DNA of 64,000 bases from an uncultured Pseudomonadota bacterium (GTDB taxonomy: Bacteria; BMS3Abin14), in NCBI GenBank assembly GCA_964454175.1, contig CAYVSA010000001.1:9993-73992 (forward strand), in the 5' to 3' direction. The notes under the pieces are model-generated. The model searched no databases and had not been told where the DNA came from. It saw only the letters and a program-made list of their open reading frames with translations. The position numbers and the translations under genes are program-made. Positions 12,155 through 43,912 of the stretch are shown piece by piece. The first letter of the stretch is position 1. Every line of letters begins with the position of its first letter.

Positions 12155-12225
12155 GCTTCTATCTCATGTCTGGTTTTTGTTTCCATAATAATGACTCTGG
12201 ACATTGGACTTTTGGGCTTGTCTGC

Positions 12226-21750: not shown

Positions 21751-21770
21751 TTCGTCCTCCCGCCTGTATT

Positions 21771-26571: not shown

Positions 26572-26958
26572 TTGGCTCGAGCGATGCAAGAAGATCTAAT
26601 TCTTGGTTACCTGCCCATATTCATTTTCCTGATAATTGTCGCGGGCATGGGGTCCATGATGATCATGGTCTCGGCGATAATTGGAAGGAAAAACCCCTCA
26701 AAAGAAAAGCTATCCACCTACGAATGCGGAATGACTCCGACTAAGGACGCTCGCAGAAGACTGGACATCCGCTTTTACCTGATCGCCATGCTATTTATCC
26801 TTTTCGATATCGAGGTAGTCTTCCTATATCCATGGGCTATCCTCTTTGACCGATTTGACCCCATCGTCTTCGGGTTCATCGAGATGGTAATGTTTATCAT
26901 CGTCCTGCTCTTCGGGTACATCTATGTGTGGAGGAAGGGTGCGCTTAACTGGTCATGA
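26572..26958 (+). CDS. nuoA: NADH-quinone oxidoreductase subunit A
   Basis: It is a 3-TM protein with 'YECG...[22 protein letters not shown]'. Confidence 0.9.
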
Positions 26959-28025: not shown

Positions 28026-29198
28026 TTGGCAAGACAGGAGATAATGACCATTAATATGGGTCCCCACCACCCCTCGACCCACGGGGTGCTCAGGGTGATC
28101 CTTGAGCTGGACGGTGAGACGGTGATAAATGCCGTGCCGGATATCGGCTATCTCCACCGGGGCATAGAAAAACTCGCCGAGCACAAGAAATACATCCAGG
28201 TCCTGCCGCTCACCGACAGGCTGGATTACCTCGCTTCTGGTACGAACAACCTCGCCTATATCCTGGCAGTGGAAAAGCTGCTGGGTCTCGAAGCCCCCAG
28301 ACGGGCCAGGTACATCAGAACCATATTCGCCGAGCTGACGAGGATCGGGAGCCATCTTCTCTGGCTGGGTACTCACGCCGCCGACATCGGAGCCATGACT
28401 GTGCTCCTTTACGGCATGAGAGAGCGGGAGGACGTCCTGGACATCATCGAGGAAACAGCGGGTACACGCCTCATGATGACGTACTTCAGGCCAGGCGGAG
28501 TCGTGAGGGATCTCCCTCCCGGCTTTGACAAGAAGATAAAGAGCTTCCTGAAAACATTCCCCGCAAGGATCGACGAATATGAAAGGCTTCTGACGAAGAA
28601 CAGGATATGGCTCCAGAGGACTGTGGGCATCGGTACGATAAGCCGGGATGAAGCCGTATCCCTGGGGCTTTCGGGTCCGGCTCTGCGCGGTTCGGGAGTG
28701 GACTGGGATATCAGGCGTGACGAGCCTTACGAGGCCTATGATGAGATCGAGTTCGACGTCCCCGTTTATGAGGGCGGCGATGTCTATTCCAGGTATCTGG
28801 CCAGAATAGGTGAACTCAGGCAGAGCGTGCGAATGCTTCTTCAACTCGTGGAAGGCCTGCCCGAAGGGCCATATATCGAAAGGACCGCCAAGTACGTACT
28901 CCCTGCCAAAGAAAGGCTGGACAGCTCCATGGAGGCCATGATCCACCACTTCAAGCTCGTTGTTGAGGGTATGACCCCCCCTGTGGGCGAAGTGTACTCC
29001 ACAATAGAATCTCCCAAGGGTGAGATCGGGTTCTACATCGTGAGCGATGGCAAGCCGCATCCGTACAGGCTCAGGATCAGGCCGCCGTCTTTCGTAAACC
29101 TCCAGTCCCTGTTAACCATGGCAAAGGGGAACATGATTGCTGATGTTGTAGCAATTATCGGAAGTCTTGACATAGTTCTTGGGGAAATTGATCGGTAG
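28026..29198 (+). CDS. nuoD: NADH-quinone oxidoreductase subunit D
   Basis: 'MTINMGPHHPSTHGVLR' matches the 49-kDa subunit. Confidence 0.95.
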   Translation: MARQEIMTINMGPHHPSTHGVLRVILELDGETVINAVPDIGYLHRGIEKLAEHKKYIQVLPLTDRLDYLASGTNNLAYILAVEKLLGLEAPRRARYIRTIFAELTRIGSHLLWLGTHAADIGAMTVLLYGMREREDVLDIIEETAGTRLMMTYFRPGGVVRDLPPGFDKKIKSFLKTFPARIDEYERLLTKNRIWLQRTVGIGTISRDEAVSLGLSGPALRGSGVDWDIRRDEPYEAYDEIEFDVPVYEGGDVYSRYLARIGELRQSVRMLLQLVEGLPEGPYIERTAKYVLPAKERLDSSMEAMIHHFKLVVEGMTPPVGEVYSTIESPKGEIGFYIVSDGKPHPYRLRIRPPSFVNLQSLLTMAKGNMIADVVAIIGSLDIVLGEIDR

Positions 29199-29200
29199 CG

Positions 29201-29683
29201 ATGATGAAACTGTTCGATTCGGAAGAAACAAAAGAGATGGAGGGCATAGCATTACGCTATGCGGCTCCTGCATCCGCGATAATGCCGCTCCTGCACTTTG
29301 TACAGGAAAGGAAGGGCTATCTGGCCGAGGAGTACCTGGTCTTTATCGCCGATTTTCTGGAGATCCCCCACGTCAGGGCCTTCGAGGTGGCAACCTACTA
29401 CACCATGTACTTCACTAAACCCGTAGGCAGGCACCTCATTCAAGTCTGCAGAAATCTGAGCTGCTCTGTAAACGGTGCGCCCGAAGTTATTGCATCTCTC
29501 AGGGAGACCCTGGGTGTTGGCATCGGTGAGACCACTTCCGACGGCATGTTCACGATCGTGGAAGTTGAGTGCATCGGCGCCTGCGACAAGGCGCCAGCCA
29601 TGATGGTCGACGACAAACTCTTCGAGATGGTCAGCCCTGAAACCCTGGGGATGATACTGGATTCATACAGGAAGACCGCGTGA
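29201..29683 (+). CDS. nuoE: NADH-quinone oxidoreductase subunit E (2Fe-2S)
   Basis: The ligands CRNLSC...CIGACDKAP and a thioredoxin-like fold are present. Confidence 0.9.
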   Translation: MMKLFDSEETKEMEGIALRYAAPASAIMPLLHFVQERKGYLAEEYLVFIADFLEIPHVRAFEVATYYTMYFTKPVGRHLIQVCRNLSCSVNGAPEVIASLRETLGVGIGETTSDGMFTIVEVECIGACDKAPAMMVDDKLFEMVSPETLGMILDSYRKTA

Positions 29684-29684
29684 A

Positions 29685-30980
29685 ATGACTAAGATCCTGA
29701 CCCGAAACATAGACCGGCCCAACCCGGCGAATATTGACTCGTACCTCTACAACGAGGGTTACCAGGCGCTTCCCATGGCACTGAATGATATGATGCCTGA
29801 AGATGTGATCGATGAGGTAAAGGCCTCCCGCATCAGGGGCCGCGGCGGTGCCGGGTTCCCGGCAGGCATGAAGTGGGATTTTGCCTCCAGGGACCCAAGG
29901 GGGCCCAAGAACATTATTGCCAACGCCGATGAGGGTGAGCCCGGGACGTTCAAGGACAGGGTGCTCATCGAAAAAGATCCCCACGCTCTCCTGGAGGGCA
30001 TGGCCATAGCGGGCTACGCTGTCGGCGCTGAGTTGGGATTTGTCTACATACGGGGGGAATACCCGGAAGGCGCCAGAATACTTGAAAAGGCCATCGCTGA
30101 TGCAGAGGCCAGGTCGTTCCTTGGCAAAAACATCCTGAACTCGGGGTTCGATTTCACCATAACAGTTCACAGGGGTGCAGGTGCCTACATCTGTGGGGAG
30201 GAAACCGCCCTTATCGAGTCACTGGAGGGCAAGAGAGGCCAATCAAGGATCCGGCCGCCTTTCCCGGTGAACGTCGGCTACATGAATCTGCCAACAGTAG
30301 TTAACAACGTTGAGACCCTTGCTAATATCCCTCAGATCATTCTCAGGGGCGGTGAGTGGTATGCCGGGTTCGGAACCCGGGAGTGTACAGGCACCAAGCT
30401 CTACTCGATAAGCGGTAAGGTGGCCAGGCCCGGGGTATACGAATTGCCCATGGGGACCACACTCAGAGATCTGATATTCGAGCACTGCGGCGGGATGAAG
30501 GACGGCAGGAGCTTCAAGGCCGCATTCCCGGGCGGTGCTTCCAGCGCCTGTCTTGACGAGACCGGGCTCGATGTCCAGCTGGACTTCAACTCCCTCGCGG
30601 CAGCTGGCAGTATGCTGGGTTCAGGGGCCGTCATGGTCCTCGATGATTCGGACGATATGGTCAAGGCTGTTCATGTCCTCATCAAGTTTTTCGAGCACGA
30701 GTCGTGCGGTAAATGCACTCCCTGCAGGGAGGGGCTGTTCTGGATAAGGCAGATATTGGACAGGATCCTCGCAGGGGGAGGGACCGAGAGCGACCTGGAA
30801 CTTCTTCTGAACATAAGCGAAAATATTGCGTCCACTTCATTTTGCGGCCTTGGAGAAGCTTCGGTAAGCGCTCTGGTCAGCACTATTAAAAAGTTCAGGA
30901 GCGAATTTCTGGCTTACATAAACTCTCCTGAGGAAAAAGCCGAAGAAACATCGGCATCGGGGCAGGAGCAGGCATCGTGA
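29685..30980 (+). CDS. nuoF: NADH-quinone oxidoreductase subunit F (FMN/NADH-binding, 4Fe-4S)
   Basis: 'GRGGAGFPAGMKW', 'ESCGKCTPCREG' and 'CGLG' are present. Confidence 0.95.
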   Translation: MTKILTRNIDRPNPANIDSYLYNEGYQALPMALNDMMPEDVIDEVKASRIRGRGGAGFPAGMKWDFASRDPRGPKNIIANADEGEPGTFKDRVLIEKDPHALLEGMAIAGYAVGAELGFVYIRGEYPEGARILEKAIADAEARSFLGKNILNSGFDFTITVHRGAGAYICGEETALIESLEGKRGQSRIRPPFPVNVGYMNLPTVVNNVETLANIPQIILRGGEWYAGFGTRECTGTKLYSISGKVARPGVYELPMGTTLRDLIFEHCGGMKDGRSFKAAFPGGASSACLDETGLDVQLDFNSLAAAGSMLGSGAVMVLDDSDDMVKAVHVLIKFFEHESCGKCTPCREGLFWIRQILDRILAGGGTESDLELLLNISENIASTSFCGLGEASVSALVSTIKKFRSEFLAYINSPEEKAEETSASGQEQAS

Positions 30981-33652
30981 TGGTCAAGATCGAAATTGAC
31001 GGCCGTCAAGTTACTGTTAACGGCCACATCACCGTGCTGGAGGCTGCGAGCAAGCTCGGTATCTACATACCGACCTTCTGCCACCATCCAAGGCTCTCGG
31101 AGCTCGGCGCCTGCAGGATGTGCCTCGTGGAAGTGGAGGGCATGGGTAAACTGCAGACGGCCTGTACGCTTGCAGTTGCAGAGGGAATGGTGATCAGGAC
31201 CAGCACTGACAGGGTGGAAAAATCCCGCCGCGCCATGCTCGAATTCCTGTTGATCAACCATCCACTGGAATGCACTGTGTGCGACGCTTCGGGAGAATGC
31301 ACCCTCCAGGACTTCGCTTTCAAGTTCGGCAGCGCCGAGACGAGGTTCACCGAGAAAAAGAGGGTATTGCGCGACCATATCATAAGCCCCCTCATCGACA
31401 GGAATCTGAACAGGTGCATCCAGTGCAAGCGGTGCGTTAGAATTTGTGACGAAGTTCAGGGCGTCACTGCCCTGGGTATGTCCTACCGCGGGGCAAAGAC
31501 TGTGGTGGGGCCATTTATGGAAAAATCACTGGACTGCGAATACTGCGGCCACTGCATATGGGCCTGCCCGGTGGGTGCCATCACTTCGCGGGTTATGAGA
31601 CACAAGATCCGCACGTGGGAGATGGACAAGGCTGAGGCTATATGCGCGTTCTGCAGCTGCGGCTGCACGCTCACATACAATCACAGGGACAACAGGGTCT
31701 ACAAGGTCACCCACGCTGACGGCAGGGGTGTTAATCAGGGCAGTCTCTGCTCGAGGGGTTATTTCGGATATGATGTGATAAACAGCCCGGAAAGGCTAAC
31801 GACACCACTTGTCCGAAAAGATGGTGAACTGGTTCAGGCAACATGGGAGGAGGCCCTTGAGACCGTTGCATCCGCGCTGGGCAAAGCTGCCGGTGAGGGC
31901 GGTGAAAACGCGGTGGGAGGCATCGTATCAGCTCGGCTTACAAACGAGGAACTATATCTGTTTCAGAAGCTGATGAGATCCTGCCTGTCCAGCAACTGTG
32001 TTGATGTGACCACCGGAGAGTGGAACAGAACAGTCCTTCCAGTACTTGAGGAAAGGCTGGGTGTCTTTGCTGCCACCAACTCCTTAGACGAGGTCACCTA
32101 TGCTGACTCCCTCATCATAATCGGCTGCGACATTACGGTGGAAAACCCCATAACTGGTATAAAGGTGAAGTCGGCCATCCACAGAGGGGGGTCGGTTTCC
32201 GAGATCAACCCCAGGAAAACAGCCCTGTCCCGCATGACAAAGAGGACCATGCTGGTTAGGCCCGGCAACGAACTTACCCTGGTTAAGGGCTTGATCAGGG
32301 CGGTCTTTGACGAGGATCTGATCAGCCAGGAGGACGGGAGCACCTGCAGCAACCTGGATGAACTCAGGCTGTCGGTATTAGACCAGGACCTGAAGTCGAT
32401 CTCCGATGAAACAGGAGTGTCTCAGGAAGACATCACAGGCCTTGCCAGGGAGTTCATGGGGGCGCGCAGGGCGTCCATAATATTCGGTGAGTCTGCTGTC
32501 ATGACTGAGCAGGGTCCGGCTCTTATCAATGCACTTATCGACCTGCTCATGCTCACCGGGAAATTGGGTCAGGAGGGTTTCGGCCTGTATCCCGTAAACG
32601 GTACAGCCAATTTTCAGGGAGCAGTGGACATGGGGGTCGCGCCGGCTCACCTGCCTGGCCACGCCCCCCTTGCTGTAAAGGGCTCGGCTAAAATGCTGGC
32701 CGACGCATGGAAGTCCTCTATCCCGGAAGGCCAGGGTCTTTCGGCTCCACAGATGCTTAAGGCTGCAGTGGAAGGTTCCCTGAAAACGCTCTATGTAGTG
32801 GGTGTAGACATAACCGGTTCTTTCCCCGACAGTTCGATCGCAGAAAAGGCCCTGTCTAACCTGGATTTCCTTGTTGTGCAGGACCTTTTCCTCACGGATA
32901 CAGCAAGGGCGGCAGATGTTGTTCTGCCCGCTGGCAGCCTGGCTGAAAAAAACGGCACCCTTACCAACGTGGAAAGGCGAATCCAGAGAACACGCAGGGC
33001 CATCGACGGGCTGGGGAAGTCCATGCCTGACTGGAGGATCTTTTCTGAACTCGGCGTAGCCCTGGGCCATATGGAAATGAAATATGTGAATGCTGCAGAG
33101 GTGCTGGACGAGATCGCGCAGACCGTGCCCTACTACTCCGGCATCAACCATCGAATACTGGCAGATAATGGGCTCCAGTGGCCCTTCACCCAGGATGACG
33201 CCAGGGAAGTTTACCATGAAGGTTATCTCGGGACCCGCCACCTCCTTTCAGGAGGAGTCGCTGACAGTCTCAGGTCATTTGCAGCCGTGAAATCCTGGGG
33301 CAAAGTGCCAGCGAACGCCGATTATCCCTATACCCTGGTCACAGGAGATCTCCTGTCCCATTCGGGCACCTTCACGCGCTACTCTGAATCGTTGAACAAG
33401 ATAGACTCTGAAGGTGCTGTCGTTATGAATCCGGAAACCGGGGCCAGCCTGGGCATAGATGATGGAGGAAAAGCCAGGGTTGTTTCGGCCCATGGTGAAC
33501 TAACTGTAAAGACCATTTATTCAGAAGACCTCATGGAGGATATTTTCTTCCTTCCGAAACATTTTGCCGACGTACCTGCAGGCAGGTTGATGAGTGCGTC
33601 GGGAAACGGCAGCGAGACTGCTGTTGTGCAGGTACGCGTGGAAAGAGCGTGA
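30977..33652 (+). CDS. nuoG: NADH-quinone oxidoreductase subunit G (long form, Mo-free molybdopterin-oxidoreductase fold)
   Basis: The N-terminal 2Fe-2S 'CHHPRLSELGACRMC', the clusters 'HPLECTVCDASGEC' and 'CIQCKRCVRICDE', and 'CAFCSCGCT' are present. There is no Cys/Sec or His at the FDH active-site position. Confidence 0.9.
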   Translation: MMVKIEIDGRQVTVNGHITVLEAASKLGIYIPTFCHHPRLSELGACRMCLVEVEGMGKLQTACTLAVAEGMVIRTSTDRVEKSRRAMLEFLLINHPLECTVCDASGECTLQDFAFKFGSAETRFTEKKRVLRDHIISPLIDRNLNRCIQCKRCVRICDEVQGVTALGMSYRGAKTVVGPFMEKSLDCEYCGHCIWACPVGAITSRVMRHKIRTWEMDKAEAICAFCSCGCTLTYNHRDNRVYKVTHADGRGVNQGSLCSRGYFGYDVINSPERLTTPLVRKDGELVQATWEEALETVASALGKAAGEGGENAVGGIVSARLTNEELYLFQKLMRSCLSSNCVDVTTGEWNRTVLPVLEERLGVFAATNSLDEVTYADSLIIIGCDITVENPITGIKVKSAIHRGGSVSEINPRKTALSRMTKRTMLVRPGNELTLVKGLIRAVFDEDLISQEDGSTCSNLDELRLSVLDQDLKSISDETGVSQEDITGLAREFMGARRASIIFGESAVMTEQGPALINALIDLLMLTGKLGQEGFGLYPVNGTANFQGAVDMGVAPAHLPGHAPLAVKGSAKMLADAWKSSIPEGQGLSAPQMLKAAVEGSLKTLYVVGVDITGSFPDSSIAEKALSNLDFLVVQDLFLTDTARAADVVLPAGSLAEKNGTLTNVERRIQRTRRAIDGLGKSMPDWRIFSELGVALGHMEMKYVNAAEVLDEIAQTVPYYSGINHRILADNGLQWPFTQDDAREVYHEGYLGTRHLLSGGVADSLRSFAAVKSWGKVPANADYPYTLVTGDLLSHSGTFTRYSESLNKIDSEGAVVMNPETGASLGIDDGGKARVVSAHGELTVKTIYSEDLMEDIFFLPKHFADVPAGRLMSASGNGSETAVVQVRVERA

Positions 33653-33665: not shown

Positions 33666-34133
33666 ATGATCGATATCAGCCAGCTCAAGGCAATATCCTC
33701 CCTTGAAGGAGTGTCAGAGGACGCACTGTCGGAATTGGCCAGGGTAATGCAGAAGAGGGTCTACAAAGACTCTGACCCTATTTTTAACGAGAACACCGAA
33801 GGCGGTGACCTTTATCTCGTGGGCGAGGGATCCGTGAAGTTGGAGAAAAGGGCAAAAGAGGGAGAGGCCCAGAGCCTGTCAGTGGTTCGTGCCGGCGATT
33901 TCCTCGGGATAATGACCTTCCTTGTGGGCGGCAAGCACTCTGCAAGCGCCGTGGCCCATGACGACTGCACACTTTACGTCCTGGACAAGGCCTCTTTTGA
34001 TGCTTTCGTTGAAAAGTTCCCGGCCGATGCCAACAGCATCTTCATGATATTTATAGAACGGCTCATCGAATCAGTCAGAAGCATGTATGAGCGGTACATC
34101 GATATGGTCAACTACATGTGGAGGTGGCGGTGA
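33666..34133 (+). CDS. Standalone cyclic nucleotide-binding (CAP effector-like) domain protein
   Basis: 'LYLVGEGSVKLEK...VVRAGDFLGIMTFLVGGKHSASAVAHDDCTLYVLDKASF' is a cNMP-binding beta-barrel. There is no DNA-binding HTH. Its stop overlaps the next start by 16 nt. Confidence 0.6.
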   Translation: MIDISQLKAISSLEGVSEDALSELARVMQKRVYKDSDPIFNENTEGGDLYLVGEGSVKLEKRAKEGEAQSLSVVRAGDFLGIMTFLVGGKHSASAVAHDDCTLYVLDKASFDAFVEKFPADANSIFMIFIERLIESVRSMYERYIDMVNYMWRWR

Positions 34134-34651
34134 ACCCTGAGGAAATTGAGGGATACGAGGAAGAAGAAGAGCTCGATCTTTCTCCCGTCAATGACATACT
34201 GAGTGACCTGGGCGACGCGAAGGGGATGCTGATCCCGCTTCTGCAGGAAGTCCAGAAGGTTTTCGGGTATGTACCTGAAGACGCCGCCAATATGGTTGCC
34301 GATGGGCTGGGCCTTTACCGCAGCCAGGTCTATGGTGTTCTGACATTTTATACGCAGTTCCACCTGAGCCCCAGGGGACGGCATATCATACGCGCATGTT
34401 CCGGGACTGCCTGCCACGTCAGGGGCGGTAAGAGCGTTATTGCCAGGCTGGAGAATCTCCTGGAGATCGAACATGGAGAGACCACAGAAGACGGGCTTGC
34501 TTCCTTTGAAAAAGTTGCCTGCCTCGGGGCGTGCGGTCTCGCCCCGGTGATCATGATAGACAACGATGCCTTCGGACAGGTGGATCCAACAAAGACCGAG
34601 CGGATAATCGAGAACCTGCGCGAGGTGTCCGGCACACAGAAAAGTGATTGA
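34118..34651 (+). CDS. Second NuoE/HoxE/FdsG-like 2Fe-2S subunit
   Basis: The ligands 'CSGTACHVRGG...CLGACGLAPV' are present. It has an acidic N-terminal extension. Confidence 0.85.
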   Translation: MEVAVNPEEIEGYEEEEELDLSPVNDILSDLGDAKGMLIPLLQEVQKVFGYVPEDAANMVADGLGLYRSQVYGVLTFYTQFHLSPRGRHIIRACSGTACHVRGGKSVIARLENLLEIEHGETTEDGLASFEKVACLGACGLAPVIMIDNDAFGQVDPTKTERIIENLREVSGTQKSD

Positions 34652-34681: not shown

Positions 34682-37600
34682 ATGTCTAAAAGTTCAAACG
34701 ATAAACTGATCGTACTGGGAATGGGCACATGCGGCCTGGCTTCCGGCGCGCGTGGAGTCCTCTCCCAGGTTGAAGAGGAACTTACCAGCCTCAAGCTGGA
34801 TGTGCCTATCCTTAAGACCGGCTGCATAGGGATGTGCTACCAGGAGGTTCTCCTGGACGTGTCACTCCCTGGCCGTACCAGGGTCACCTACGCCAAAGTT
34901 CAGCCCGAGATGGTCTCAAAGATCATTGAAAGCCATGTCGTAAAGGGAAAACCCGTAAACGATTACGCCATCGGGCAGATACAGCAGAACGGTGAAAAGG
35001 CGTATAAGGGCATCCCGACTTACGACGAGATGGATTTCTTCGCGAAGCAAAAGCGGATCGTTCTTCGGCGCTGTGGATTCATCGACCCTGACAAGATCGA
35101 GGATTACCTTGACACAGATGGTTACAAGGCCGCGGAAAAGGCCCTGACAACGCTATCGCCGACCGTGATCAGGGAGATCGTCAAGAAGGCTGGCCTGAGG
35201 GGCCGCGGCGGAGGCGGATTCCCCACCGGTCTCAAGTGGGAGTTCTGCGCCACGGCGGCAGGGGAACCGAAGTACCTCATCTGTAACGCGGATGAGGGTG
35301 ATCCGGGCGCCTTTATGGACAGGAGCGTTCTGGAAGGTGACCCGCACGCGCTGCTGGAGGGAATGATCATTGCGGCCTATGCTATCGGCGCAGAATACGG
35401 CTATATTTACTGCCGCGCAGAGTATCCCCTGGCGATCGAGAGACTGGGAACCGCTATTGCCCGGGCCGAGGAAAAAGGATTCCTGGGAAAGAATATATTC
35501 GGTACTGACTTTTCCTTTACCCTCAGGATCAAGGAGGGCGCCGGAGCTTTCGTCTGCGGCGAGGAAACTGCTCTCATGGCGTCCATCGAGGGTAAACGGG
35601 GCATGCCCCGATCGAGACCGCCTTTCCCTGCTCATAAAGGTCTCTGGGGTAAACCTTCCAACATCAACAACGTCGAGACTTTTGCCTGTGTCGCCCCCAT
35701 CATCCTTGGAGGCGCTGACAGTTATTCCTCGATCGGGACCGAAGGCACCAAGGGCACGAAAGTTTTCGCCCTTACCGGAAAGATCAATAACACGGGGCTG
35801 ATCGAGGTCCCCGCCGGTACCCAGCTAAAGGAGATAATTTACGATATCGGGGGCGGTATTGTTGGTGGAGGCAAGTTCAAAGCCGCCCAGCTCGGGGGCC
35901 CTTCAGGAGGCTGCCTGCCCGCCGAGATCGTTGAAACACCCATCGATTACGATTCACTGATCGAAGCCGGAGCCATGATGGGTTCGGGCGGCGTAGTTAT
36001 AATGGACGAGCGGACTTGCATGGTGGACGTTGCCAGGTTCTTTTTGAACTTCACAACTTCCGAGTCCTGCGGGAAATGTGTGCCCTGCCGCCTTGGGACC
36101 AAGACAATGCTCAGCATCCTGGAGCGTATCACCGCTGGCAAAGGTACCATGCAGGACCTTGTCAACCTGGAGGAGATGGGTGCACAGATAAAGACTACTT
36201 CCCTGTGCGGTCTGGGACAGACTGCCCCGAACCCGGTACTTTCCACCATCAGGTACTTCAGACACGAGTACGAGGCCCACATATTAAACAAGAGATGCCC
36301 CGCGGTAGTTTGCAAGGAGGTCATCTCATCACCGTGCCAGCATGTATGCCCTATCGAGACGGATGTTCCAGCATATGTAACCCTTATCGGGCAGGGGAAA
36401 TTCACGGCCGCTCTTGATCTCATCCGCATGACCAATCCCCTCCCGGCTGTCTGCGGCAGGGTCTGCCATCATCCGTGCGAAAGCAAGTGCAGACGCGGAG
36501 AACTGGACAGGCCTATCAGCATCAGAAACCTCAAGAGGGTAGCCTCCGATAACGCTGCCGCCGATGCTGCCACCGGAAAGTACCAGATCAAGTCAAAGAA
36601 GATCTCCGGCAAGGGAAAGAAGGTCGCTATCATCGGGGGCGGGCCTTCCGGTCTCACGGCAGCCCACTTCCTCGCACTCAAGGATTTTTCCCCTGTCATT
36701 TTCGAAAAACAGAGGGTAGCGGGCGGCATGCTTATGCTGGGAATACCTGAGTACCGCCTGCCGAGACAGACACTGAACCATGAGATCAGGGCAATCGAAG
36801 ATATGGGTGTCCAGATCCATTACAGCACCCCGGTGGGCGAGGCTGTCTCCTTCGATCAGCTCAGGATGGATCATGAAGCTGTATTTATTGCATCCGGTGC
36901 CCACGTCGATCTCAAGATGGGCATACCAGGTGAGGATTCCGAAGGGGTGTATGAAAGCCTCAGCTTCCTCAGAAGGGTTAACCTGGGAGAAGAAGTGGCA
37001 CTGGGAAACAAGGTTGCAGTCGTTGGTGGAGGCAATACCGCCATTGACGCATCGAGGATCGCCAGGCGCCTGGGTGCTGACGTGACGATCCTCTACAGGA
37101 GAACGCAAAATGAAATGCCCGCTGATGACATGGAGATCCATGAGGCTCTCCTGGAGGGTATAGAGCTGGAAACGCTCGTGGCCCCGGTGAAGGTACTTTC
37201 GTCCGGCGGGAAAATGACTGGCGCCACCTGTATCAGGATGGAACTTGGCGAGCCTGATTCTTCCGGAAGACGAAGGCCGGTTCCCATAGAGGGGTCCGAG
37301 TTTGACATTCACCTCGACAACCTGATCGTTGCAGTTTCAGGCAAGCCCGACCTTTCATACCTCACCGACAAACACGGGATAGGACTTTCCAGGTGGGATA
37401 CGGTGGATGTTCACCCCTACACGCAGATGACCAACGTGGAAGGCGTGTTTGCCGGGGGCGACGTGGTTACAGGCCCATGGATGGTCATAGATGCAATTGC
37501 AGCCGGCAAGAGGGCGGCAGCACACATGGAGCTGTTCTTAAACGGGGAGGAAGTTGCCCCATTGTACGATGTCACAAAACCCAATATCTCGGGAATAGAG

Positions 37601-37765
37601 GCAATTGAGCTTACGGATGAGGACATGACCCTTACGAGGCCTGACATGCCCACACTCGAAGTTGTCAAGAGGTTAAAGGACTTCGCTGAGGTTGAACTGG
37701 GTTTTTCCAAAGAAGAGGCTATGAAAGAGGCCAGGCGCTGCCTGCGCTGTGACATTTCTGATTAA
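34682..37765 (+). CDS. Fusion protein: thioredoxin-like 2Fe-2S domain + NuoF/HoxF/FdsB-like FMN-NADH domain + GltD-like NAD(P)H/FAD domain
   Basis: The N-terminus 'GMGTCGLASGA...CIGMCYQ' precedes the NuoF core with 'GRGGGGFPTGLKW', 'ESCGKCVPCRLG' and 'CGLG'. After that comes 'CQHVCPIE...CGRVCHHPCESKC', then the Rossmann folds 'VAIIGGGPSGLTAA' and 'VAVVGGGNTAID', and a C-terminal 'RCLRCD'. Length is 1027 aa. Confidence 0.85.
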   Translation: MSKSSNDKLIVLGMGTCGLASGARGVLSQVEEELTSLKLDVPILKTGCIGMCYQEVLLDVSLPGRTRVTYAKVQPEMVSKIIESHVVKGKPVNDYAIGQIQQNGEKAYKGIPTYDEMDFFAKQKRIVLRRCGFIDPDKIEDYLDTDGYKAAEKALTTLSPTVIREIVKKAGLRGRGGGGFPTGLKWEFCATAAGEPKYLICNADEGDPGAFMDRSVLEGDPHALLEGMIIAAYAIGAEYGYIYCRAEYPLAIERLGTAIARAEEKGFLGKNIFGTDFSFTLRIKEGAGAFVCGEETALMASIEGKRGMPRSRPPFPAHKGLWGKPSNINNVETFACVAPIILGGADSYSSIGTEGTKGTKVFALTGKINNTGLIEVPAGTQLKEIIYDIGGGIVGGGKFKAAQLGGPSGGCLPAEIVETPIDYDSLIEAGAMMGSGGVVIMDERTCMVDVARFFLNFTTSESCGKCVPCRLGTKTMLSILERITAGKGTMQDLVNLEEMGAQIKTTSLCGLGQTAPNPVLSTIRYFRHEYEAHILNKRCPAVVCKEVISSPCQHVCPIETDVPAYVTLIGQGKFTAALDLIRMTNPLPAVCGRVCHHPCESKCRRGELDRPISIRNLKRVASDNAAADAATGKYQIKSKKISGKGKKVAIIGGGPSGLTAAHFLALKDFSPVIFEKQRVAGGMLMLGIPEYRLPRQTLNHEIRAIEDMGVQIHYSTPVGEAVSFDQLRMDHEAVFIASGAHVDLKMGIPGEDSEGVYESLSFLRRVNLGEEVALGNKVAVVGGGNTAIDASRIARRLGADVTILYRRTQNEMPADDMEIHEALLEGIELETLVAPVKVLSSGGKMTGATCIRMELGEPDSSGRRRPVPIEGSEFDIHLDNLIVAVSGKPDLSYLTDKHGIGLSRWDTVDVHPYTQMTNVEGVFAGGDVVTGPWMVIDAIAAGKRAAAHMELFLNGEEVAPLYDVTKPNISGIEAIELTDEDMTLTRPDMPTLEVVKRLKDFAEVELGFSKEEAMKEARRCLRCDISD

Positions 37766-37813
37766 CGGGAGCAGCCTGCGTTAAAGCAGTTAATGAGGAG
37801 TAGGGAAAAGAGC

Positions 37814-40597
37814 ATGTTCAACGTCATCGTAGACGGCAGACCGGTAAGCGTACCCAGGGGCTCAACGATCCTGGAGGCAGCCAGGAAACTGGAAATCGAA
37901 ATTCCGACTTTCTGCGACCACAAGCACCTGTTCCCATACGGATCGTGCCGTATGTGTGTTGTTGAGCTTGAGGGCTCAGACAGGCTGTTTGCCTCCTGTG
38001 TTACGCCGGTTACCGACAAGATGGAGATATATACTGACACTGCCAGGGTCAAGGCGGCAAGAGAGACTGTGCTTGAGCTTCTCCTGACCTATCATCCCCT
38101 GGAGTGTCCCGTGTGCCCTCAGTCGGGCCGCTGCATGCTGCAGGACATGACCTTTGAGCACGGGAAGGACAGCGGCAGGTTCGGCTCGGTGGGCGTTGAC
38201 AAGAGAATTGACTACCTCTCGCCTCTAATAGAGATGAACCAGAACAGGTGCATTCTCTGCGGAAGATGCGTGAGAATATGCGATGAGGTTCAGGGCGAGG
38301 GGGAGCTGGATTTTGTGAATCGCGGGTTCCCCACTGTGGTTGAACCGTCCTTTGAAAGGCCGATGGATTGTGAATTCTGCGGCCAGTGTGTACAGGCCTG
38401 CCCCGTGGGCTCGCTGTACAGCAGAATCTACAAGCACACGGCCCCATCGTGGGAACTGACTCCGGTAAGGACTACATGCCCCTTCTGCGGCGTAGGCTGC
38501 ACCCTCAATCTTGAGGTCAAGGGGGATCATATCTATCACGTACTGGGAGTGGATGACGAGGGCTCCAATAACGATGGGAACCTGTGCTGTAAAGGCAGGT
38601 TCGGATACGAATACGTCCATAGCCCAGAGAGAATAATGCAGCCAATGGTGCGCAAGGGCGAAGACCTCGAACCCGCAACGTGGGAAGAGGCCTACGATCG
38701 CATCAAAGAGGGCTTCGGCCGGATTCGTGACGAGCACGGACCGGATGCCCTTGGCGGTATAGCATCCGCAAGGTGCACTAACGAAGAAAATTATCTCTTC
38801 CAGAAGTTCATGAGAGCCGCGATAGGAACAAATAACATTGACTCTGTTGCCAGATTTGGCCACTTCCCCGGGATGGAGGCACTGCTAAAAGCTTTCGGCG
38901 TCGGGGCACCCACCAACTCCCTGGCAGACCTGGCACACACTGATCTGATTTTTGCCATCGATTCCAACATCACTGAAGACGACCATGTGGCGGGGTTGAA
39001 GGTTCTCAAACGGGTTCGCTACGGTGGGGCTCAGCTTATTGTTGCCAATAGCCGCAAGATCAAACTTACAAAATTTTCAGATGCCTGGATGAGGCACAGG
39101 CCCGGTTCCAGTGTGGCACTGTTAAATTCGATGGCGTGGGTTGTTCTGGAGGAGGGGCTGGAAGATGAGGAGTTCTGCCGCAAGAGGGTTGGCGGAATAG
39201 ATGATCTGAGAGCTTTTCTCAAAGACTACGCGCCTGAAAAGACGGCCGCCATTACTGGTGTGGCCGCAGAAGCAGTGCGGGAAGCCGCCAGGGCCATCGC
39301 TTCCTCCGCGAACGTCACCATACTGCTCACCCTCGGCGGTGCGAGCCCATACACCGGGGAAGACACCGTTGCAGCAGCAGCCAACCTCGCTCTCATTACC
39401 GGCAACGTTGGCCGCCAGGGCGCGGGGATAATTCCCTTGTCCGAGTACAACAATGTTCAGGGCTCCATGGATGTGGGGGCCCTCGCCCAGTTCCTGCCCG
39501 GTTACCAGAGCGTTACAGATAGCGGAATAAGATCCTGGTTCGAGGAGACCTGGGGAGTTGACCTGCCCGGGAAGCCTGGGCTTGAAGCTATGGAGATGTT
39601 TGCCGCGGCGAAAGAGGGAAAACTCCGCGGGCTGTACATAATGGGGGAGAACCCGCTCTCTGCATTCCCGGACAGGGAGTCGGTGATCGACGGTCTTTCA
39701 AGCCTGGACTTTCTTGTGGTTCAGGACATGTTCCTGACGCAGACAGCCCTCTTTGCCGACGTGGTATTGCCCACCTCTGGCGGGCCGGAAAAGAACGGTA
39801 CCTTCACCAACACCGATCGCAGGGTCCAGAGGGTGCGAAAGGCGATCAAGTCGCCGGGAGATACCAGGGACGACTGGAGGATCCTTACCGATCTCTCCGC
39901 GGCGATGGGGTATCCTGCCGAATATGCCGATGTTATGGAGATCACGGAAGAGATTGCAAGCGTGGTTCCTTTCTACGCCGGGATAACGCCTGAAAGGCTT
40001 GAGGGAAACGGCCTGCACTGGCCCTGTCCCAGGGAGGATCACCCCGGGACGGATTTTCTTCATGAGAACAGATTCCCTTCAGGGCTTGGCCGCACTCGCG
40101 CAATTGACGGCAGGCTCCAGAAGAAATCCTCTGCGAACTACCCTTTCCTGCTGGTGCCGGGCCTTCTCCTGTACCACTCCGGGACGACCACCACGAGAGC
40201 TAAAGGTCTCAACGAAGTTGCTCCTATCGCCCTTGCGGAGATAAACCCCGAAGACGCCCGGAAGCTGGACGTAAAATCCGGAGACTGGGTAAAGCTCACC
40301 AGTCTGAGAGGTATGGTGGACATAAAAGTTCTCGTCACGGATAAGACTATGGAAGGGACGATCTTCGCACCCACTCACTACCACGGCACACCTGTCAATG
40401 CCCTGCTGACTTACGACCACGTGAACGAGAATGCCGTCACAAGCGTCTCCGTGGAGAGGATCGAGAAGAGATTAGAAGATGAGAGAACAGAGCCGGTGGA
40501 AGGACAGGTAACCAGGCTGAAGAAGATCGTTAAGGATATACAGAAGAAGAGGCAAAGAGCCCACCATGGACAGGGCTCCGACGCCTCGGGAGGATGA
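37814..40597 (+). CDS. Second NuoG-like / degenerate formate-dehydrogenase-alpha-like subunit (FdsA/SfrA-like)
   Basis: The 2Fe-2S 'CDHKHLFPYGSCRMC', 'HPLECPVCPQSGRC', 'CILCGRCVRICDE' and 'CPFCGVGCT' are present. The motif 'VARFGHFPG' aligns with FdhF 'CARV-U-HGPS', with Gly at the Sec/Cys position but Arg and His kept. I place the start at the internal Met 'MFNVIVDG'. Confidence 0.8.
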   Translation: MFNVIVDGRPVSVPRGSTILEAARKLEIEIPTFCDHKHLFPYGSCRMCVVELEGSDRLFASCVTPVTDKMEIYTDTARVKAARETVLELLLTYHPLECPVCPQSGRCMLQDMTFEHGKDSGRFGSVGVDKRIDYLSPLIEMNQNRCILCGRCVRICDEVQGEGELDFVNRGFPTVVEPSFERPMDCEFCGQCVQACPVGSLYSRIYKHTAPSWELTPVRTTCPFCGVGCTLNLEVKGDHIYHVLGVDDEGSNNDGNLCCKGRFGYEYVHSPERIMQPMVRKGEDLEPATWEEAYDRIKEGFGRIRDEHGPDALGGIASARCTNEENYLFQKFMRAAIGTNNIDSVARFGHFPGMEALLKAFGVGAPTNSLADLAHTDLIFAIDSNITEDDHVAGLKVLKRVRYGGAQLIVANSRKIKLTKFSDAWMRHRPGSSVALLNSMAWVVLEEGLEDEEFCRKRVGGIDDLRAFLKDYAPEKTAAITGVAAEAVREAARAIASSANVTILLTLGGASPYTGEDTVAAAANLALITGNVGRQGAGIIPLSEYNNVQGSMDVGALAQFLPGYQSVTDSGIRSWFEETWGVDLPGKPGLEAMEMFAAAKEGKLRGLYIMGENPLSAFPDRESVIDGLSSLDFLVVQDMFLTQTALFADVVLPTSGGPEKNGTFTNTDRRVQRVRKAIKSPGDTRDDWRILTDLSAAMGYPAEYADVMEITEEIASVVPFYAGITPERLEGNGLHWPCPREDHPGTDFLHENRFPSGLGRTRAIDGRLQKKSSANYPFLLVPGLLLYHSGTTTTRAKGLNEVAPIALAEINPEDARKLDVKSGDWVKLTSLRGMVDIKVLVTDKTMEGTIFAPTHYHGTPVNALLTYDHVNENAVTSVSVERIEKRLEDERTEPVEGQVTRLKKIVKDIQKKRQRAHHGQGSDASGG

Positions 40598-40601
40598 TGA
40601 G

Positions 40602-41600
40602 ATGATCTGCCCGGAATGCAATCTGCTCATACCGGAGGACAGCCGGTTCTGCAAGGAGTGCGGCTATAAACTGGAGGCCAGTGTGGAGGAGCGTGATGCT
40701 CTCTCCAACCAGGAAAAGGCGGAGAAGCTTTACCGGGAGGGTATCGTCCAGTACCACCAGGGTCAGTTTGACGAGGCTATTTCACTTTGGGACGAGGCGG
40801 TTGGTCTTATTCCGGACTTTCAAATGACGAACTACTACCGGGGAGTGGCGTACTACGACAAGGGCATGCTGTCTGTTGCCATGGAGTGCTTTAAAAAATC
40901 TGAGGCTTCGCATCCCACCTCCTCTGCTGTCCACTACCGTCTTGGTCTGACTTATTATGCATTGGGGCTTTTAAGCGAATCTGAATACCACTTCAAGAAA
41001 GTGGAGGCACTGATACCCAATACCGCCCAGATCCACTACAGGCTGGGCCTTCTGTACCAGAAAAACGCGGCCCTGGACGAGGCCGTTTCAGAACTGCTGA
41101 AATCACTGGAATTTTCACCTGACTTTGCCAGAGCTTACTTCACACTCGGAGTGACTTATTTCCAGAAGGGAATGCTTGCCGAAGCAGCCGAGGCGCTGCG
41201 CAAAGTTGTGGATATTTCACCGAGATATGTCATGGCCTACTATCACCTGGGCATTGTGCTGTTTCACAAGGGCAACCTTCCCGAAGCCATCAAGGCATTT
41301 GACGAGGCGGTTCTGCTGTCCCCGAACTTCACGGCGGCCTACTACCACCTGGGAGTGTCCCACGCCAGGAAGGGTGCCCACGAAGATGCAGTGTCAAGCT
41401 TCATCAAGGTGAACGGTCTGGACCCCATGGATTCCTCAGCTCTCTACCACCTTGGGAACAGTTATGTGCATCTGGGGATGCTGGACAAGGCTGAAGATAC
41501 ACTGCAGGAGGCACTGAGGCTTAACCCCGACAACTCCGAGGCCTACTTCCTCCTTGAAAAGGTTGGAGAGATCAAGCGCTCCGGGGCGTTGGAGTACTAG
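40602..41600 (+). CDS. Zinc-ribbon + TPR-repeat protein
   Basis: The N-terminal 'CPECN...CKECGY' ribbon is followed by about 8 TPR repeats (AYYxLG/AxxxxxxAL periodicity). I place the start at 'MICPECN', after the upstream stop. Confidence 0.6.
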   Translation: MICPECNLLIPEDSRFCKECGYKLEASVEERDALSNQEKAEKLYREGIVQYHQGQFDEAISLWDEAVGLIPDFQMTNYYRGVAYYDKGMLSVAMECFKKSEASHPTSSAVHYRLGLTYYALGLLSESEYHFKKVEALIPNTAQIHYRLGLLYQKNAALDEAVSELLKSLEFSPDFARAYFTLGVTYFQKGMLAEAAEALRKVVDISPRYVMAYYHLGIVLFHKGNLPEAIKAFDEAVLLSPNFTAAYYHLGVSHARKGAHEDAVSSFIKVNGLDPMDSSALYHLGNSYVHLGMLDKAEDTLQEALRLNPDNSEAYFLLEKVGEIKRSGALEY

Positions 41601-41612: not shown

Positions 41613-42632
41613 ATGGATAACACAACCATGTACATACTTCTTTCTCTTTTCAAGATCGTTCTGGTCCTTGCCATAACGCTGACTTCGGTCCCGATAATGG
41701 TCTGGGTGGAGAGGAAGGTGTCCGGCCACATCCAGAACAGGCACGGACCGCTCTACGTTGGGCCCTTCGGGCTGCTGCAGCCCTTTGCCGACGTTGCCAA
41801 GCTGCTCCTTAAGGAAGACATTATACCCACCGAGGCGGACAAGGTGCTTTACGTTCTGTCGCCGCTCATGTCCTTTGTACCGGCGCTTCTGACTTTTGCG
41901 GTCATACCCATCGGGCCGCACCTGAACATAACAGACATCAACATCGGCATAGTCTACGTTCTGTCCGTTTCATCGCTGGGTGTATACGGGCTTGTTATGG
42001 CAGGGTGGTCGTCCAACAATAAATACGCCCTCCTGGGCGGTCTCAGGTCAGCGGCGCAGATGATAAGCTACGAGATAACCCTGGGGCTGTCCATTATAGG
42101 CGTTCTTATGTACTCCAGGTCACTTTCAATGGTCAGGATCGTGGAGATGCAGGCAGACACGTGGTTCGTCCTGCCCCAGTTCCTGGGATTCATTCTGTTT
42201 CTCGTGGCATCTTTTGCAGAGACCAACAGGCTGCCCTTTGACCTTCCGGAGGCGGAACAGGAGCTCATAGCGGGCTACCACGTCGAGTATTCCAGCCTCA
42301 AGTTCGCCCTGTTCTTCCTTGCCGAGTACGTTGCCATGCTCTCGGCTTCGTGTCTTATCGTCACCCTTTTCTGGGGGGGCTGGCTGCCGATCCCTTACAT
42401 CGGACCGCTGGTGGAGGGCCTCCTGCCGCAGGTTGTAGTAATGTACGTAATGCCTATCCTGTGGTTCCTGGTTAAGGTTGCTTTCTTCATGTTCTTCTTC
42501 GTGTGGGTTCGCTGGACCTTCCCCAGGCTGCGTTACGACCAGCTGATGTCACTCGGCTGGAAAGTGCTGCTTCCCCTGGCGGTATTAAACGTTTTCATCT
42601 CTGGCGTCATCAGGATGTCGGGAGTTATGTAG
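41613..42632 (+). CDS. nuoH: NADH-quinone oxidoreductase subunit H
   Basis: 'VWVERKVSGHIQNRHGP' and 'RLPFDLPEAEQELIAGYHVEYS' are present. Confidence 0.95.
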   Translation: MDNTTMYILLSLFKIVLVLAITLTSVPIMVWVERKVSGHIQNRHGPLYVGPFGLLQPFADVAKLLLKEDIIPTEADKVLYVLSPLMSFVPALLTFAVIPIGPHLNITDINIGIVYVLSVSSLGVYGLVMAGWSSNNKYALLGGLRSAAQMISYEITLGLSIIGVLMYSRSLSMVRIVEMQADTWFVLPQFLGFILFLVASFAETNRLPFDLPEAEQELIAGYHVEYSSLKFALFFLAEYVAMLSASCLIVTLFWGGWLPIPYIGPLVEGLLPQVVVMYVMPILWFLVKVAFFMFFFVWVRWTFPRLRYDQLMSLGWKVLLPLAVLNVFISGVIRMSGVM

Positions 42633-42643: not shown

Positions 42644-43090
42644 TTGGGTTTGATCACGAATATATTCCAGACTGACCTTTTAAAAGGTCTTTCACTGACA
42701 CTCAAGAACTTCTTCGTTCGGCCTGTCACCCTGAGGTACCCGGAAGAGAAGTGGGAGATGCCCGAACGGTTCAGGGGCGCCCAGGTGCTCAAGAGGCACG
42801 AAGATGGAAAAGAACGATGTGTGGGCTGCGGCCTGTGTGGGGAGATCTGTCCTTCCAGCGCTATTACTATTGTCACCTCGGAGGGAGTTGACCACGCAAA
42901 GAAGATAGACTTCTACCAGGTCGATCTTGGCCTTTGCATCTACTGTGGTTTCTGCGAGGAGGTTTGCCCGGTCAACGCAGTTTTCATGGGTAAGGATTAC
43001 GAGCTGTCTGTGACCGATCCCGGCAGGCTCAAAGTTTCCAAAGAACAGATGCTCGAGAAGGGGGACTCCCCCCGATACGATAAACTCTAG
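42644..43090 (+). CDS. nuoI: NADH-quinone oxidoreductase subunit I (2x4Fe-4S)
   Basis: 'CVGCGLCGEICP' and 'CIYCGFCEEVCP' are present. Confidence 0.95.
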   Translation: MGLITNIFQTDLLKGLSLTLKNFFVRPVTLRYPEEKWEMPERFRGAQVLKRHEDGKERCVGCGLCGEICPSSAITIVTSEGVDHAKKIDFYQVDLGLCIYCGFCEEVCPVNAVFMGKDYELSVTDPGRLKVSKEQMLEKGDSPRYDKL

Positions 43091-43097: not shown

Positions 43098-43613
43098 GTG
43101 ATGGGCCTTCAGGACATATTTTTCTACTATTTTGCCATCGTATCCGTTGTTACTGCTCTGCTGGCGGTCTCTCGATACAATCCTGTCCACTCGGTGCTGT
43201 TCCTGGTTCCCTGCTTTTTCCACATAGCGGGGCTGTTCGTGCTGCTGGGGGCAGAGTTCCTGGCTGCCATCCAGATACTGATCTACACAGGTGCCATCAT
43301 GGTCCTGTATCTGTTTGTCATCGCCCTGCTTAACCTCTCAGGCATCAGGGGACGCAAGATCACTCACCGGCAGAGTTTCCTCGCGGCCATCGCCGTGCTG
43401 GTCCTTGTTGTCCAGCTCGTAGTGCTGGCTATCACAGCGACCTTCCCCGGGCCTTTCGAGAAATTCGCGTCGGCGTCGTTTCTGGGTAACACAGAGGCGG
43501 TGGGGTCGGTGATGTATACAACCTTCCTGTTCCCCTTCGAACTGGCTTCCCTGGTTCTGCTCGTCGCTATTTTCGGGGCGGTTGTCCTTGCCAAGAGGGA
43601 GGCGGGTGAATGA
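43098..43613 (+). CDS. nuoJ: NADH-quinone oxidoreductase subunit J
   Basis: It is a hydrophobic 171-aa protein in the conserved operon position, with '[21 protein letters not shown]'. Confidence 0.85.
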
Positions 43614-43912
43614 TCACACTGACCCACTATCTGGTGCTGGCCGCTATTATTTTCCTGATCGGAGTTCTCGGTGTGCTCATGAGGCGCAACATCATCATAA
43701 TTCTCCTGTCAATTGAACTGATGCTCAACGCCGTCAATATCAACCTTGTGGCCTTCTCACATTACTTTCACAACATGGCTGGCCAGGTTTTCGTGTTTTT
43801 CGTTCTTACCGTTGCCGCTGCAGAAGCTGCGGTGGGATTGGCTATTGTCGTCGCACTCTTCCGCAACCGCGAGACGGTCAACGTGGATGAGATCAACCTG
43901 ATGAAGGGCTAG
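43610..43912 (+). CDS. nuoK: NADH-quinone oxidoreductase subunit K
   Basis: It is a 100-aa 3-TM protein with '[18 protein letters not shown]'. Confidence 0.9.

Follow-up and report, generated by a model that had tools for sequence, protein, structure and literature searches.

The window examined here is a stretch of 64,000 nucleotides from an uncultured bacterium (assembly GCA_964454175.1, contig CAYVSA010000001.1) in which the nuo genes of complex I lie on a single strand, separated by gaps of 12-30 nt or overlapping, in the order nuoABCD-E1F1G1-cNMP-E2-F2-G2-TPR-nuoHIJKLMN. Two gene sets for an electron-input (N) module are found in this operon: a canonical nuoEFG (E1, F1, G1) and a second set, E2-F2-G2. 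The middle gene of the latter, F2 (34682-37765, plus strand), encodes a 1027-residue protein that joins a NuoF-like core to a GltD-like domain expected to bind flavin adenine dinucleotide (FAD) and NADPH. Sequence comparisons indicate that the second set stems from the bifurcating BfuABC lineage and not from the adjacent canonical NuoEFG, and we propose, with moderate confidence, that it forms a second input module of complex I with NADP(H) as the substitute for ferredoxin.

Anatomy of the F2 fusion protein

The open reading frame (ORF) of F2 starts with ATG and contains no internal stop codon. Pfam places Complex1_51K at residues 167-338 (E 1e-46), SLBB at 361-410 and NADH_4Fe-4S at 449-533 (E 1e-34), followed by Fer4_20 at 536-627 (E 4e-25) and Pyr_redox_2 at 646-942 (E 9e-28), while the NCBIfam model nuoF_fam covers residues 137-534 and GltD-like families cover 503-1025. 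The original prediction, made from the DNA letters, had described a NuoF core with flavin mononucleotide (FMN), NADH and 4Fe-4S motifs fused to a GltD-like FAD/NAD(P) domain in the C-terminal half; the core, the second domain, and their fusion are all borne out by these matches and by alignments to solved structures. F2 scores below the cut-off of the canonical NuoF equivalog TIGR01959 (490.0 against 558.65), which NuoF1 passes (577.6).

That two genes were joined by an assembly or frameshift artefact, a risk raised with the original prediction, has a negligible probability and we consider it excluded. More than 120 clusters (90% identity) from independent assemblies have the identical full-length architecture and junction, the best 120 being 986-1075 residues long with a query coverage of 96-100%, and about ten representatives at 50% identity align to F2 from end to end in one unbroken stretch. 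Against five relatives dN is 0.05-0.3 with dS saturated, and where dS could be estimated the ratio of nonsynonymous to synonymous substitution rates (dN/dS) is below 0.1 in each of four segments, across the junction and in both halves; F2 is under purifying selection. The AlphaFold2 model built from 40 homologues is also confident (mean predicted local distance difference test score, pLDDT, 87.8; predicted template modeling score, pTM, 0.79). We therefore take the fusion to be genuine on account of the full-length clusters, the low dN/dS, and its position inside a nuo operon.

The N-terminal half (residues 1-549) is, judging from its alignments, a NuoF of the bifurcating type (BfuB, as in HydB, StnB, and NfnB). 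The B subunits of structurally solved BfuABC enzymes can be aligned to F2 over all of residues ~10-549 (A. mobile NiFe-HydB, 740 bits; T. sibiricus NfnB, 721; S. ovata StnB, 719), the value for Thermus Nqo1 being 404 bits. Foldseek matches this half to full-length BfuB chains at 55-58% identity with target-normalized TM-scores of 0.87-0.96, and to the truncated 7t2r_B chain at up to 70% identity. The core contains the FMN/NADH site and the B1/N3 [4Fe-4S] cluster (C463, C466, C469, C509), and it has the Bfu-type GAFMDR where NuoF1 has GTFKDR. The cluster, zinc-type, FAD, and NADPH residues of F2 are invariant in a set of 40 homologues, to which all statements of residue invariance refer. An AHIxxKRCPAxxC motif and the invariant residues C446, H533, C539, and C544 are likewise missing from NuoF1. 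In NfnABC the ‘B2’ site is a Zn site with three Cys and one His ligand (NfnABC structure paper), and these four residues fit as a candidate B2 zinc site. The C539/C544 pair (RCPAVVC), which had been assigned to the clusters of the GltD-like domain, would instead belong to this Bfu motif.

Ahead of the core, Pfam gave no significant match in residues 1-130, nor when residues 1-155 were run alone. This region aligns with the thioredoxin-like N-domains of StnB and NfnB, and it is folded like the thioredoxin-like domain of BfuB in a confident part of the AlphaFold2 model. The original prediction of a thioredoxin-like 2Fe-2S domain thus holds for the fold, but a 2Fe-2S cluster is doubtful because the only three cysteines (C17, C48, C52) combine with E55 into the same 3Cys+1Glu arrangement that coordinates Zn in NfnB of C. 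saccharolyticus (NfnABC structure paper). Three family members (P0041, P0045, and P0059) have four cysteines in the N-domain and match PF01257.

The ferredoxin domain of BfuB is missing from F2. In BfuB, clusters B3 and B4 are located in this C-terminal 2x[4Fe-4S] domain, which passes on the low-potential electron and is the part that faces and binds ferredoxin; a domain of this type is required by the published definition of the BfuB family (Schut et al. 2022, PMC9304861). The alignments of F2 to BfuB chains in the Protein Data Bank end at residue 549, and the ferredoxin CxxCxxCxxxC motif is absent from F2 and from the 133 homologues scanned, so that the whole fusion family is without B3/B4. 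As the published survey selected BfuB by its ferredoxin-type domain, it would have missed F2.

What follows residue 549 is related most closely, among solved structures, to the GltD-like inserts of NfnA and StnC, as judged by alignment score. Residues 550-1025 match the insert of C. saccharolyticus NfnA (9bov_A residues 102-568) with 401 bits and that of S. ovata StnC (8oh5_C residues 102-567) with 364 bits, and classical NfnB/GltD proteins score lower (T. maritima NfnB, 331.6 bits). Like F2, the large subunit of NfnAB (NfnSL) and GltD have Fer4_20, a pair of Rossmann folds, and the NADPH motif YRR, but they are unpermuted and their ligand at the flavin-proximal cluster is Glu instead of Lys. 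The domain in F2 begins with SPCQHVCP and ends with RRCLRCD, a circular permutation of the kind seen in StnC and NfnA: the closing segment, EEAMKEARRCLRCD, aligns to residues 15-43 of T. maritima NfnB, and the CxxC pair that is N-terminal in classical NfnB lies in the C-terminal tail of F2. The GltD-like domain and its Cys cluster are therefore present as predicted, with the difference that the domain is permuted.

The flavin-proximal cluster is probably bound by C556, C595, C599, and K618, and the second cluster of this domain probably by C552, C603, C1020, and C1023. K618 corresponds to the Lys ligand of StnC, where NfnB has Glu; this Lys is a strictly conserved signature of StnC/NfnA and is needed for activity, and in Stn the StnC-type FAD is considered to take in electrons from NADPH without bifurcating them, whereas the FAD of NfnB is the bifurcating site itself. 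Of the two predicted GxGxxG motifs, both Rossmann folds are found; the FAD motif reads GGGPSG, but the second reads GGGNTA (GxGxxA) and is followed by LYRRT..EMPA, the same type as the NADPH sites of StnC, NfnA, and NfnB.

These features bear on whether the protein could carry out true Stn-like bifurcation among NADPH, NAD+, and ferredoxin, with ferredoxin bound away from the missing B3/B4. Bifurcation is held to take place at the flavobicluster core (B1-FMN-C1), and this core appears intact and of the Bfu type, but the B3/B4 domain is missing from the entire fusion family and the GltD-like domain occupies exactly the junction of the ferredoxin domain. Ferredoxin-dependent bifurcation is not supported because F2 lacks B3/B4, and we consider this mode improbable. 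The two nucleotide and flavin sites had been called a hallmark of bifurcating or transhydrogenating enzymes of the Nfn and Stn types. The kinship is indeed strong (719-740 bits to BfuB, with NfnA and StnC inserts the best matches for the C-terminal half), but the sign value for bifurcation is limited by the missing B3/B4 and by an FAD domain whose K618 marks the non-bifurcating type.

Other GltD-like proteins were seen in and around the data set. The window encodes a second GltD-like Fe-S flavoprotein with a YjbQ-like gene 5' of it, and the representatives include many proteins of ~650 residues that match F2 residues ~430-1023, a stretch made up of the end of NuoF and the GltD-like domain. Unfused GltD-like genes adjoin genes for Nuo/Mbh-like membrane subunits in L060, L066, and L069, which are metagenome-assembled genomes (MAGs) of Cloacimonadota, Bacteroidales, and Fervidobacterium.

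Partner subunits and operon context

E1 and E2 differ in their closest solved relatives, which are NDUFV2/NuoE of complex I for E1 and BfuC subunits (HydC, StnA, NfnC) for all eight best matches of E2. The two gene sets share 37% (E1/E2), 46% (F1/F2), and 38% (G1/G2) identity, and a recent tandem duplication of nuoEFG is ruled out because these identities are so low. Within the operon, promoter-like and terminator-like sites are not above the level of shuffled sequence (4 against 10.5 expected, and 21 against 18.6, respectively).

Table 1. Positions of the genes, domains, and other features of the window
Feature	Position	Strand	Basis
MoaA-like radical-SAM gene (ORF as listed)	2957-4120	-	
Moco riboswitch RF01055	4006-4123	-	63.5 bits, E 6e-13
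Second GltD-like Fe-S flavoprotein, 647 aa (PRK12771-like ‘NAD(P)-binding protein’)	8927-10870	+	Fer4_20 + Pyr_redox_2
NrfH/CymA-like multiheme cytochrome (454 aa), b-type cytochrome (289 aa), decaheme-like cytochrome (398 aa)	19312-22967	-	
nuoA (start codon uncertain)	26572-26958	+	ORF directly 5' of nuoB; L079 orthologue matches Oxidored_q4
nuoB	26955-27506	+	Pfam Oxidored_q6
nuoC	27510-28016	+	Pfam Complex1_30kDa
nuoD	28026-29198	+	Pfam Complex1_49kDa
nuoE1 (canonical N-module, 29201-33652)	29201-29683	+	NCBIfam NuoE 161 vs cut-off 142.4
nuoF1 (canonical N-module)	29685-30980	+	NCBIfam NuoF 577.6 vs cut-off 558.65
nuoG1 (canonical N-module)	30977-33652	+	NCBIfam NuoG 496.1 vs cut-off 470.05
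cNMP-binding-domain protein, 155 aa, between the two N-modules	33666-34133	+	Pfam cNMP_binding, E 4e-19
E2, BfuC-type NuoE homologue (2Fe-2S ‘C1’ subunit)	34118-34651	+	Pfam 2Fe-2S_thioredx
F2 residues 1-110, thioredoxin-like N-domain (‘B5’ site; C17, C48, C52, E55)	34682-35011	+	BfuB alignment, AlphaFold2 model
F2 residues 125-544, NuoF/BfuB core	35054-36313	+	Pfam, BfuB structure alignments
F2 residues 550-1027, circularly permuted GltD/NfnB-like domain	36329-37765	+	Alignment to 9bov_A and 8oh5_C
G2, NuoG-like, probably derived from formate dehydrogenase alpha (start maybe 37814)	37793-40597	+	HMM scores, alignment to FdsA
Zinc-ribbon + TPR protein, cytoplasmic (likely start 40602)	40566-41600	+	Pfam TPR
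nuoH	41613-42632	+	Pfam NADHdh
nuoI	42644-43090	+	Pfam Fer4
nuoJ	43098-43613	+	Pfam Oxidored_q3
nuoK	43610-43912	+	Pfam Oxidored_q2
nuoL	43924-45858	+	Pfam Proton_antipo_M
nuoM	45958-47550	+	Pfam Proton_antipo_M
nuoN	47566-49035	+	Pfam Proton_antipo_M
CBS-PAS-GGDEF diguanylate cyclase gene	49867-51507	+	

G2 appears to derive from the alpha subunit of formate dehydrogenase (FDH) and to have lost its own catalysis. Its score with the hidden Markov model (HMM) of Fdh-alpha, 661.9, lies just below the cut-off of 666.25, its score with the NuoG model is 433 against a cut-off of 470, and it aligns to R. capsulatus FdsA with 609 bits. The catalytic Cys/Sec (Sec, selenocysteine) is replaced by Gly (ARFGHFP) with the adjacent His kept, and the catalytic Arg is replaced by Ser (PLSEYNNVQG). 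About 25 G2-related clusters, with identities down to 53%, show the same substitutions (Gly, Ala or Ser at the first position and Ser at the second), and Cys-His-Arg is retained in all 92 true FdhA matches (identity ≤48%). G2 carries no GltD-like insert. The strongest constraint falls on residues 101-225, which would bind the Fe-S clusters and are 80-92% conserved; they are 50% identical to G1 and 39-46% identical to true FdhA proteins. A mosaic origin, with a NuoG-like Fe-S domain on an FdhA-like body, was considered and is only weakly suggested.

It is in our judgment highly improbable that E2-F2-G2 has remained a formate dehydrogenase linked to NAD(P), or a CO2 reductase, as its distant relatives may be. 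The near-threshold Fdh-alpha score speaks for this reading, as do the distant trios with Sec/Cys-His-Arg in Wood-Ljungdahl gene clusters and the presence of a riboswitch for the molybdenum/tungsten cofactor (Moco) and of moaA within the window. Set against this are the residues at the catalytic Cys/Sec and Arg positions in G2 and its clade, both of which the true FdhA proteins retain, and on these active-site residues (Gly, Ser) G2 itself is ruled out as an active formate dehydrogenase. The riboswitch precedes the MoaA-like gene, whose true start probably lies further downstream than listed because the listed start overlaps the riboswitch.

Two small genes flank the second set. Upstream is the gene for a protein with a cyclic nucleotide monophosphate (cNMP)-binding domain, whose position is conserved in L001-L005 and L084. 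Such proteins of ~155 residues stand alone, without a DNA-binding domain, in the window, in L084 (7236-7703), and in L081 (15984-16442), the last being 33% identical to the window protein and adjoining an FDH trio. Downstream is the gene for the zinc-ribbon/TPR protein, which has an N-terminal CPEC...CKEC motif and no signal peptide and may be an assembly factor or accessory subunit. Genes of this kind lie 3' of a G2-type gene in several nuo operons (the window; L083, 9822-10820; L084, 12702-13556).

Elsewhere, the window encodes multiheme cytochromes c, a b-type cytochrome, TatC, and MoaA, and because of these its content fits a respiring organism in the style of Desulfuromonadia, from an uncultured deep lineage. 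Cytochrome genes like the minus-strand cluster in Table 1 also flank the nuo operon in L082, and the diguanylate cyclase gene lies ~830 nt downstream of nuoN. No rRNA or tRNA genes were found in the window.

Related loci and the domain swap

Related loci were collected by a pattern-based, non-exhaustive genome scan. The full operon layout is conserved in L002-L005 with protein identities of 54-92%, including a closed 2.03-Mb MAG chromosome (CP070698.1); isolate names of related MAGs include SZUA-204 and CSMAG_1715. This is a deep-branching uncultured lineage, with Mfd identities of ≤42% (40-42%) outside its own clade and the nearest named relatives among Desulfuromonadales and Geobacter relatives.

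Two sister operons, L082 and L083, have the order nuoABCD-E-F-G-nuoH..N with an F of 604 residues that includes a ferredoxin domain and a G of the G2 type, so that the Bfu-type set is their only N-module; the cNMP gene is absent from both. These operons have the same flanks as that of the window (a HemL-like aminotransferase, ATP synthase, and multiheme cytochromes). Identity to the window proteins is 72% for F2 residues 1-556, 65-68% for E2, 60-62% for G2, and 76-77% for NuoD, and the gene after G in L083 is 55% identical to the TPR gene product. By these comparisons, E2, the F2 core, G2, and the TPR protein are orthologues of the sole N-module in the L082/L083 nuo operons. The original prediction had called the placement of F2 inside a nuo operon unusual; the Pfam assignments confirm the nuo operon, but the placement is not incidental, given that the orthologues form the only N-module of the sister operons.

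The window and L082 F sequences diverge directly after the B2 motif (window, RCPAVVCKEVISSPCQHVCP; L082, RCPAKVCTALITYQITDACTGCTLC), and the GltD-like domain is joined exactly at the junction where the ferredoxin domain sits in the L082-type F. L084 has both modules and the cNMP gene, and its F2 (595 residues) is unfused and has kept the ferredoxin domain. The closest fused relative outside the clade is found in L080, where a stand-alone pair of genes, E and F::GltD (F::GltD denoting a NuoF-type core fused to a GltD-like domain), encodes an F that is 74% identical to F2. This two-gene unit (9489-13087) has no NuoG-like gene nearby and may be a minimal NADH/NADPH oxidoreductase.

More distant are the trios of E, F::GltD, and FdhA in L076, L077, and L081, which stand alone outside nuo operons, are uncharacterized, and have the same fused F architecture and junction as F2 at 53-56% identity. 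Catalytic residues were checked in the FdhA proteins of L076 and L077. That of L077 keeps Cys-His and the catalytic Arg; in that of L076 (11379-14168) the catalytic position is occupied by an in-frame TGA (CARL*HSP), probably a selenocysteine codon, followed by His, with the catalytic Arg kept. In L081, FdhA (13266-15968) is split into two ORFs, possibly also by a selenocysteine TGA, and the trio lies with a cNMP gene between CODH/ACS (carbon monoxide dehydrogenase/acetyl-CoA synthase) and formyl-tetrahydrofolate synthetase. As they keep Sec/Cys-His-Arg, the G subunits of the trios are probably real formate dehydrogenases. In a neighbor-joining tree of the NuoF core, the window clade groups with L080, followed by L082/L083 as sister, then by L084 F2 and the fused FDH trios, with canonical F1 as the outgroup. 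This topology would imply at least two domain swaps at the junction of the NuoF core.

A possible NADP(H)-linked input module of complex I

A ‘Nuo-Bfu’ complex I has been predicted in Geobacter, Deferribacteres, Planctomycetes, and Nitrospirae, in which a Bfu set replaces NuoEFG and is proposed to oxidize NADH and reduced ferredoxin jointly (Schut et al. 2022, PMC9304861). The operons of L082 and L083 fit this description. The window resembles it in that E, F, and G genes of the Bfu type lie midway in a nuo operon. Nuo-Bfu replaces NuoEFG and keeps the ferredoxin domain, whereas the set described here occurs together with a canonical NuoEFG and has an NADPH/FAD domain. With canonical NuoEFG itself the set has in common the N3 cluster and the FMN/NADH fold, as well as the 2Fe-2S cluster of NuoE and the Fe-S chain of NuoG; F2 differs in its extra N-domain, its zinc motifs, and its FAD domain.

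The soluble three-subunit Nfn-Bfu/Stn enzymes (StnABC of S. ovata, 8oh5; NfnABC of C. saccharolyticus, 9bov, and of T. sibiricus, 9n5u) are built from parts that match those of E2-F2-G2 one by one and follow each other in an identical linear order: first a NuoE-like subunit, then a BfuB core that has a thioredoxin-like N-domain and zinc motifs, next the permuted FAD/NADPH domain with its Lys-liganded cluster, and last a NuoG/Fdh-like subunit. They differ in that the GltD-like domain is inserted in their NuoG-like BfuA subunit instead of lying at the C-terminus of the NuoF-like protein, and here B3/B4 is missing and the genes lie in a nuo operon.

The comparisons above establish how the domains are arranged and swapped, which ligands are conserved, and which genes are orthologous. 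F2 retains the BfuB core, including the FMN/NADH site, the [4Fe-4S] cluster B1, and the two zinc-type sites, and its ferredoxin-facing domain has been swapped, directly after RCPAxxC, for an NADPH-FAD domain of the StnC/NfnA type with two [4Fe-4S] clusters. We suggest that E2-F2-G2 would operate as follows. Hydride would be exchanged between NADP(H) and the FAD, and single electrons would then travel through the two clusters of the GltD-like domain to the center formed by the E2 2Fe-2S cluster, FMN, and B1, where NAD(H) would react as well. From there the electrons would pass through the Fe-S chain of G2 to NuoI, NuoB, and quinone. With NADP(H) in the place that ferredoxin has in a Nuo-Bfu module, complex I would thus be connected to the NADP(H) pool. 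The path between the FAD domain and FMN is presumably the one outlined, and the flux may run toward NADPH oxidation for respiration or toward quinone-assisted reduction of NADP+.

A second input module is the most likely reading because of the orthology with the sister operons, the position of an N-module, and a G2 that has lost catalysis but kept its Fe-S chain; the position between nuoG1 and nuoH is also conserved. Also in its favor are the close packing of the genes on one strand, with promoter-like and terminator-like sites no more numerous than chance, the low dN/dS of every F2 segment, and the earlier prediction of Nuo-Bfu. Several points weigh against it. The operon contains a canonical NuoEFG set as well, and complex I therefore does not need E2-F2-G2. 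The closest fused relative outside the clade is the stand-alone pair of L080 and the more distant ones are the stand-alone formate dehydrogenase trios, from which it follows that an E/F unit can work away from complex I. In addition, the tree of the NuoF core carries no support values, the NADPH specificity of F2 is suggested by motif homology, and docking of E2-F2-G2 on the membrane arm is deduced from the genes.

The same observations lend themselves to the main rival, in which E2-F2-G2, or E2-F2, would be a soluble NADH:NADP+ transhydrogenase like Stn and NfnABC, co-transcribed with complex I for redox balance and staying free of the membrane arm, with G2 serving as a scaffold or electron reservoir. 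The stand-alone pair and trios and the complete canonical NuoEFG in the same operon are what it would lead one to expect, and the best solved relatives are soluble enzymes. It accounts less well for E2, the F2 core, G2, and the TPR protein having their orthologues in the only N-module of L082/L083, for the Fe-S domain of G2 remaining under the strongest constraint after the formate dehydrogenase chemistry has gone, and for the conserved placement between nuoG1 and nuoH. We regard this rival as somewhat unlikely, though it deserves serious weight.

A further variant, which we think unlikely, is that the flavin center of F2 splits the electrons of NADH, one branch going through G2 and the proton-pumping arm to quinone and the other through E2 and the FAD domain to NADP+. 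The module would then be a respiration-driven transhydrogenase (2 NADH + Q + NADP+ -> 2 NAD+ + QH2 + NADPH) or, in the reverse sense, an obligately coupled NADH + NADPH:quinone oxidoreductase, and the cell would choose between this module and canonical NuoEFG, possibly via the cNMP-binding protein.

The individual parts of E2-F2-G2 are known; what seems new is the fusion of a BfuB core to a permuted NADPH domain in the place of the ferredoxin domain, set in a nuo operon with two N-modules. We searched the literature for NuoF-GltD fusions, for NADPH-linked nuoEFG or Nuo-Bfu, and for formate dehydrogenase combined with NuoF and glutamate synthase, and did not find the arrangement of F2 described, nor, in the searchable literature, a dedicated NADPH-FAD entry domain on an input module of complex I. 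To our knowledge, complex I has been treated as NADH-specific (bacterial and mitochondrial) or ferredoxin-specific (cyanobacterial and plastid NDH-1). Plain oxidation of NADPH into the quinone pool would be in keeping with the metabolism of a Geobacter-like organism whose isocitrate dehydrogenase depends on NADP.

If E2-F2-G2 docks on the membrane arm of complex I, it would link the NADP(H) pool directly to the quinone pool or the proton gradient. Nature would then have set up a test of the Bfu ‘flavobicluster’ mechanism by exchanging ferredoxin for NADP(H), and the module would be a case of a formate dehydrogenase turned into a NuoG, as has long been postulated for how the N-module of complex I arose. 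Beyond this operon, the F::GltD fusions make up an uncharacterized and fairly widespread family whose partners are often Sec/Cys formate dehydrogenases in Wood-Ljungdahl clusters.

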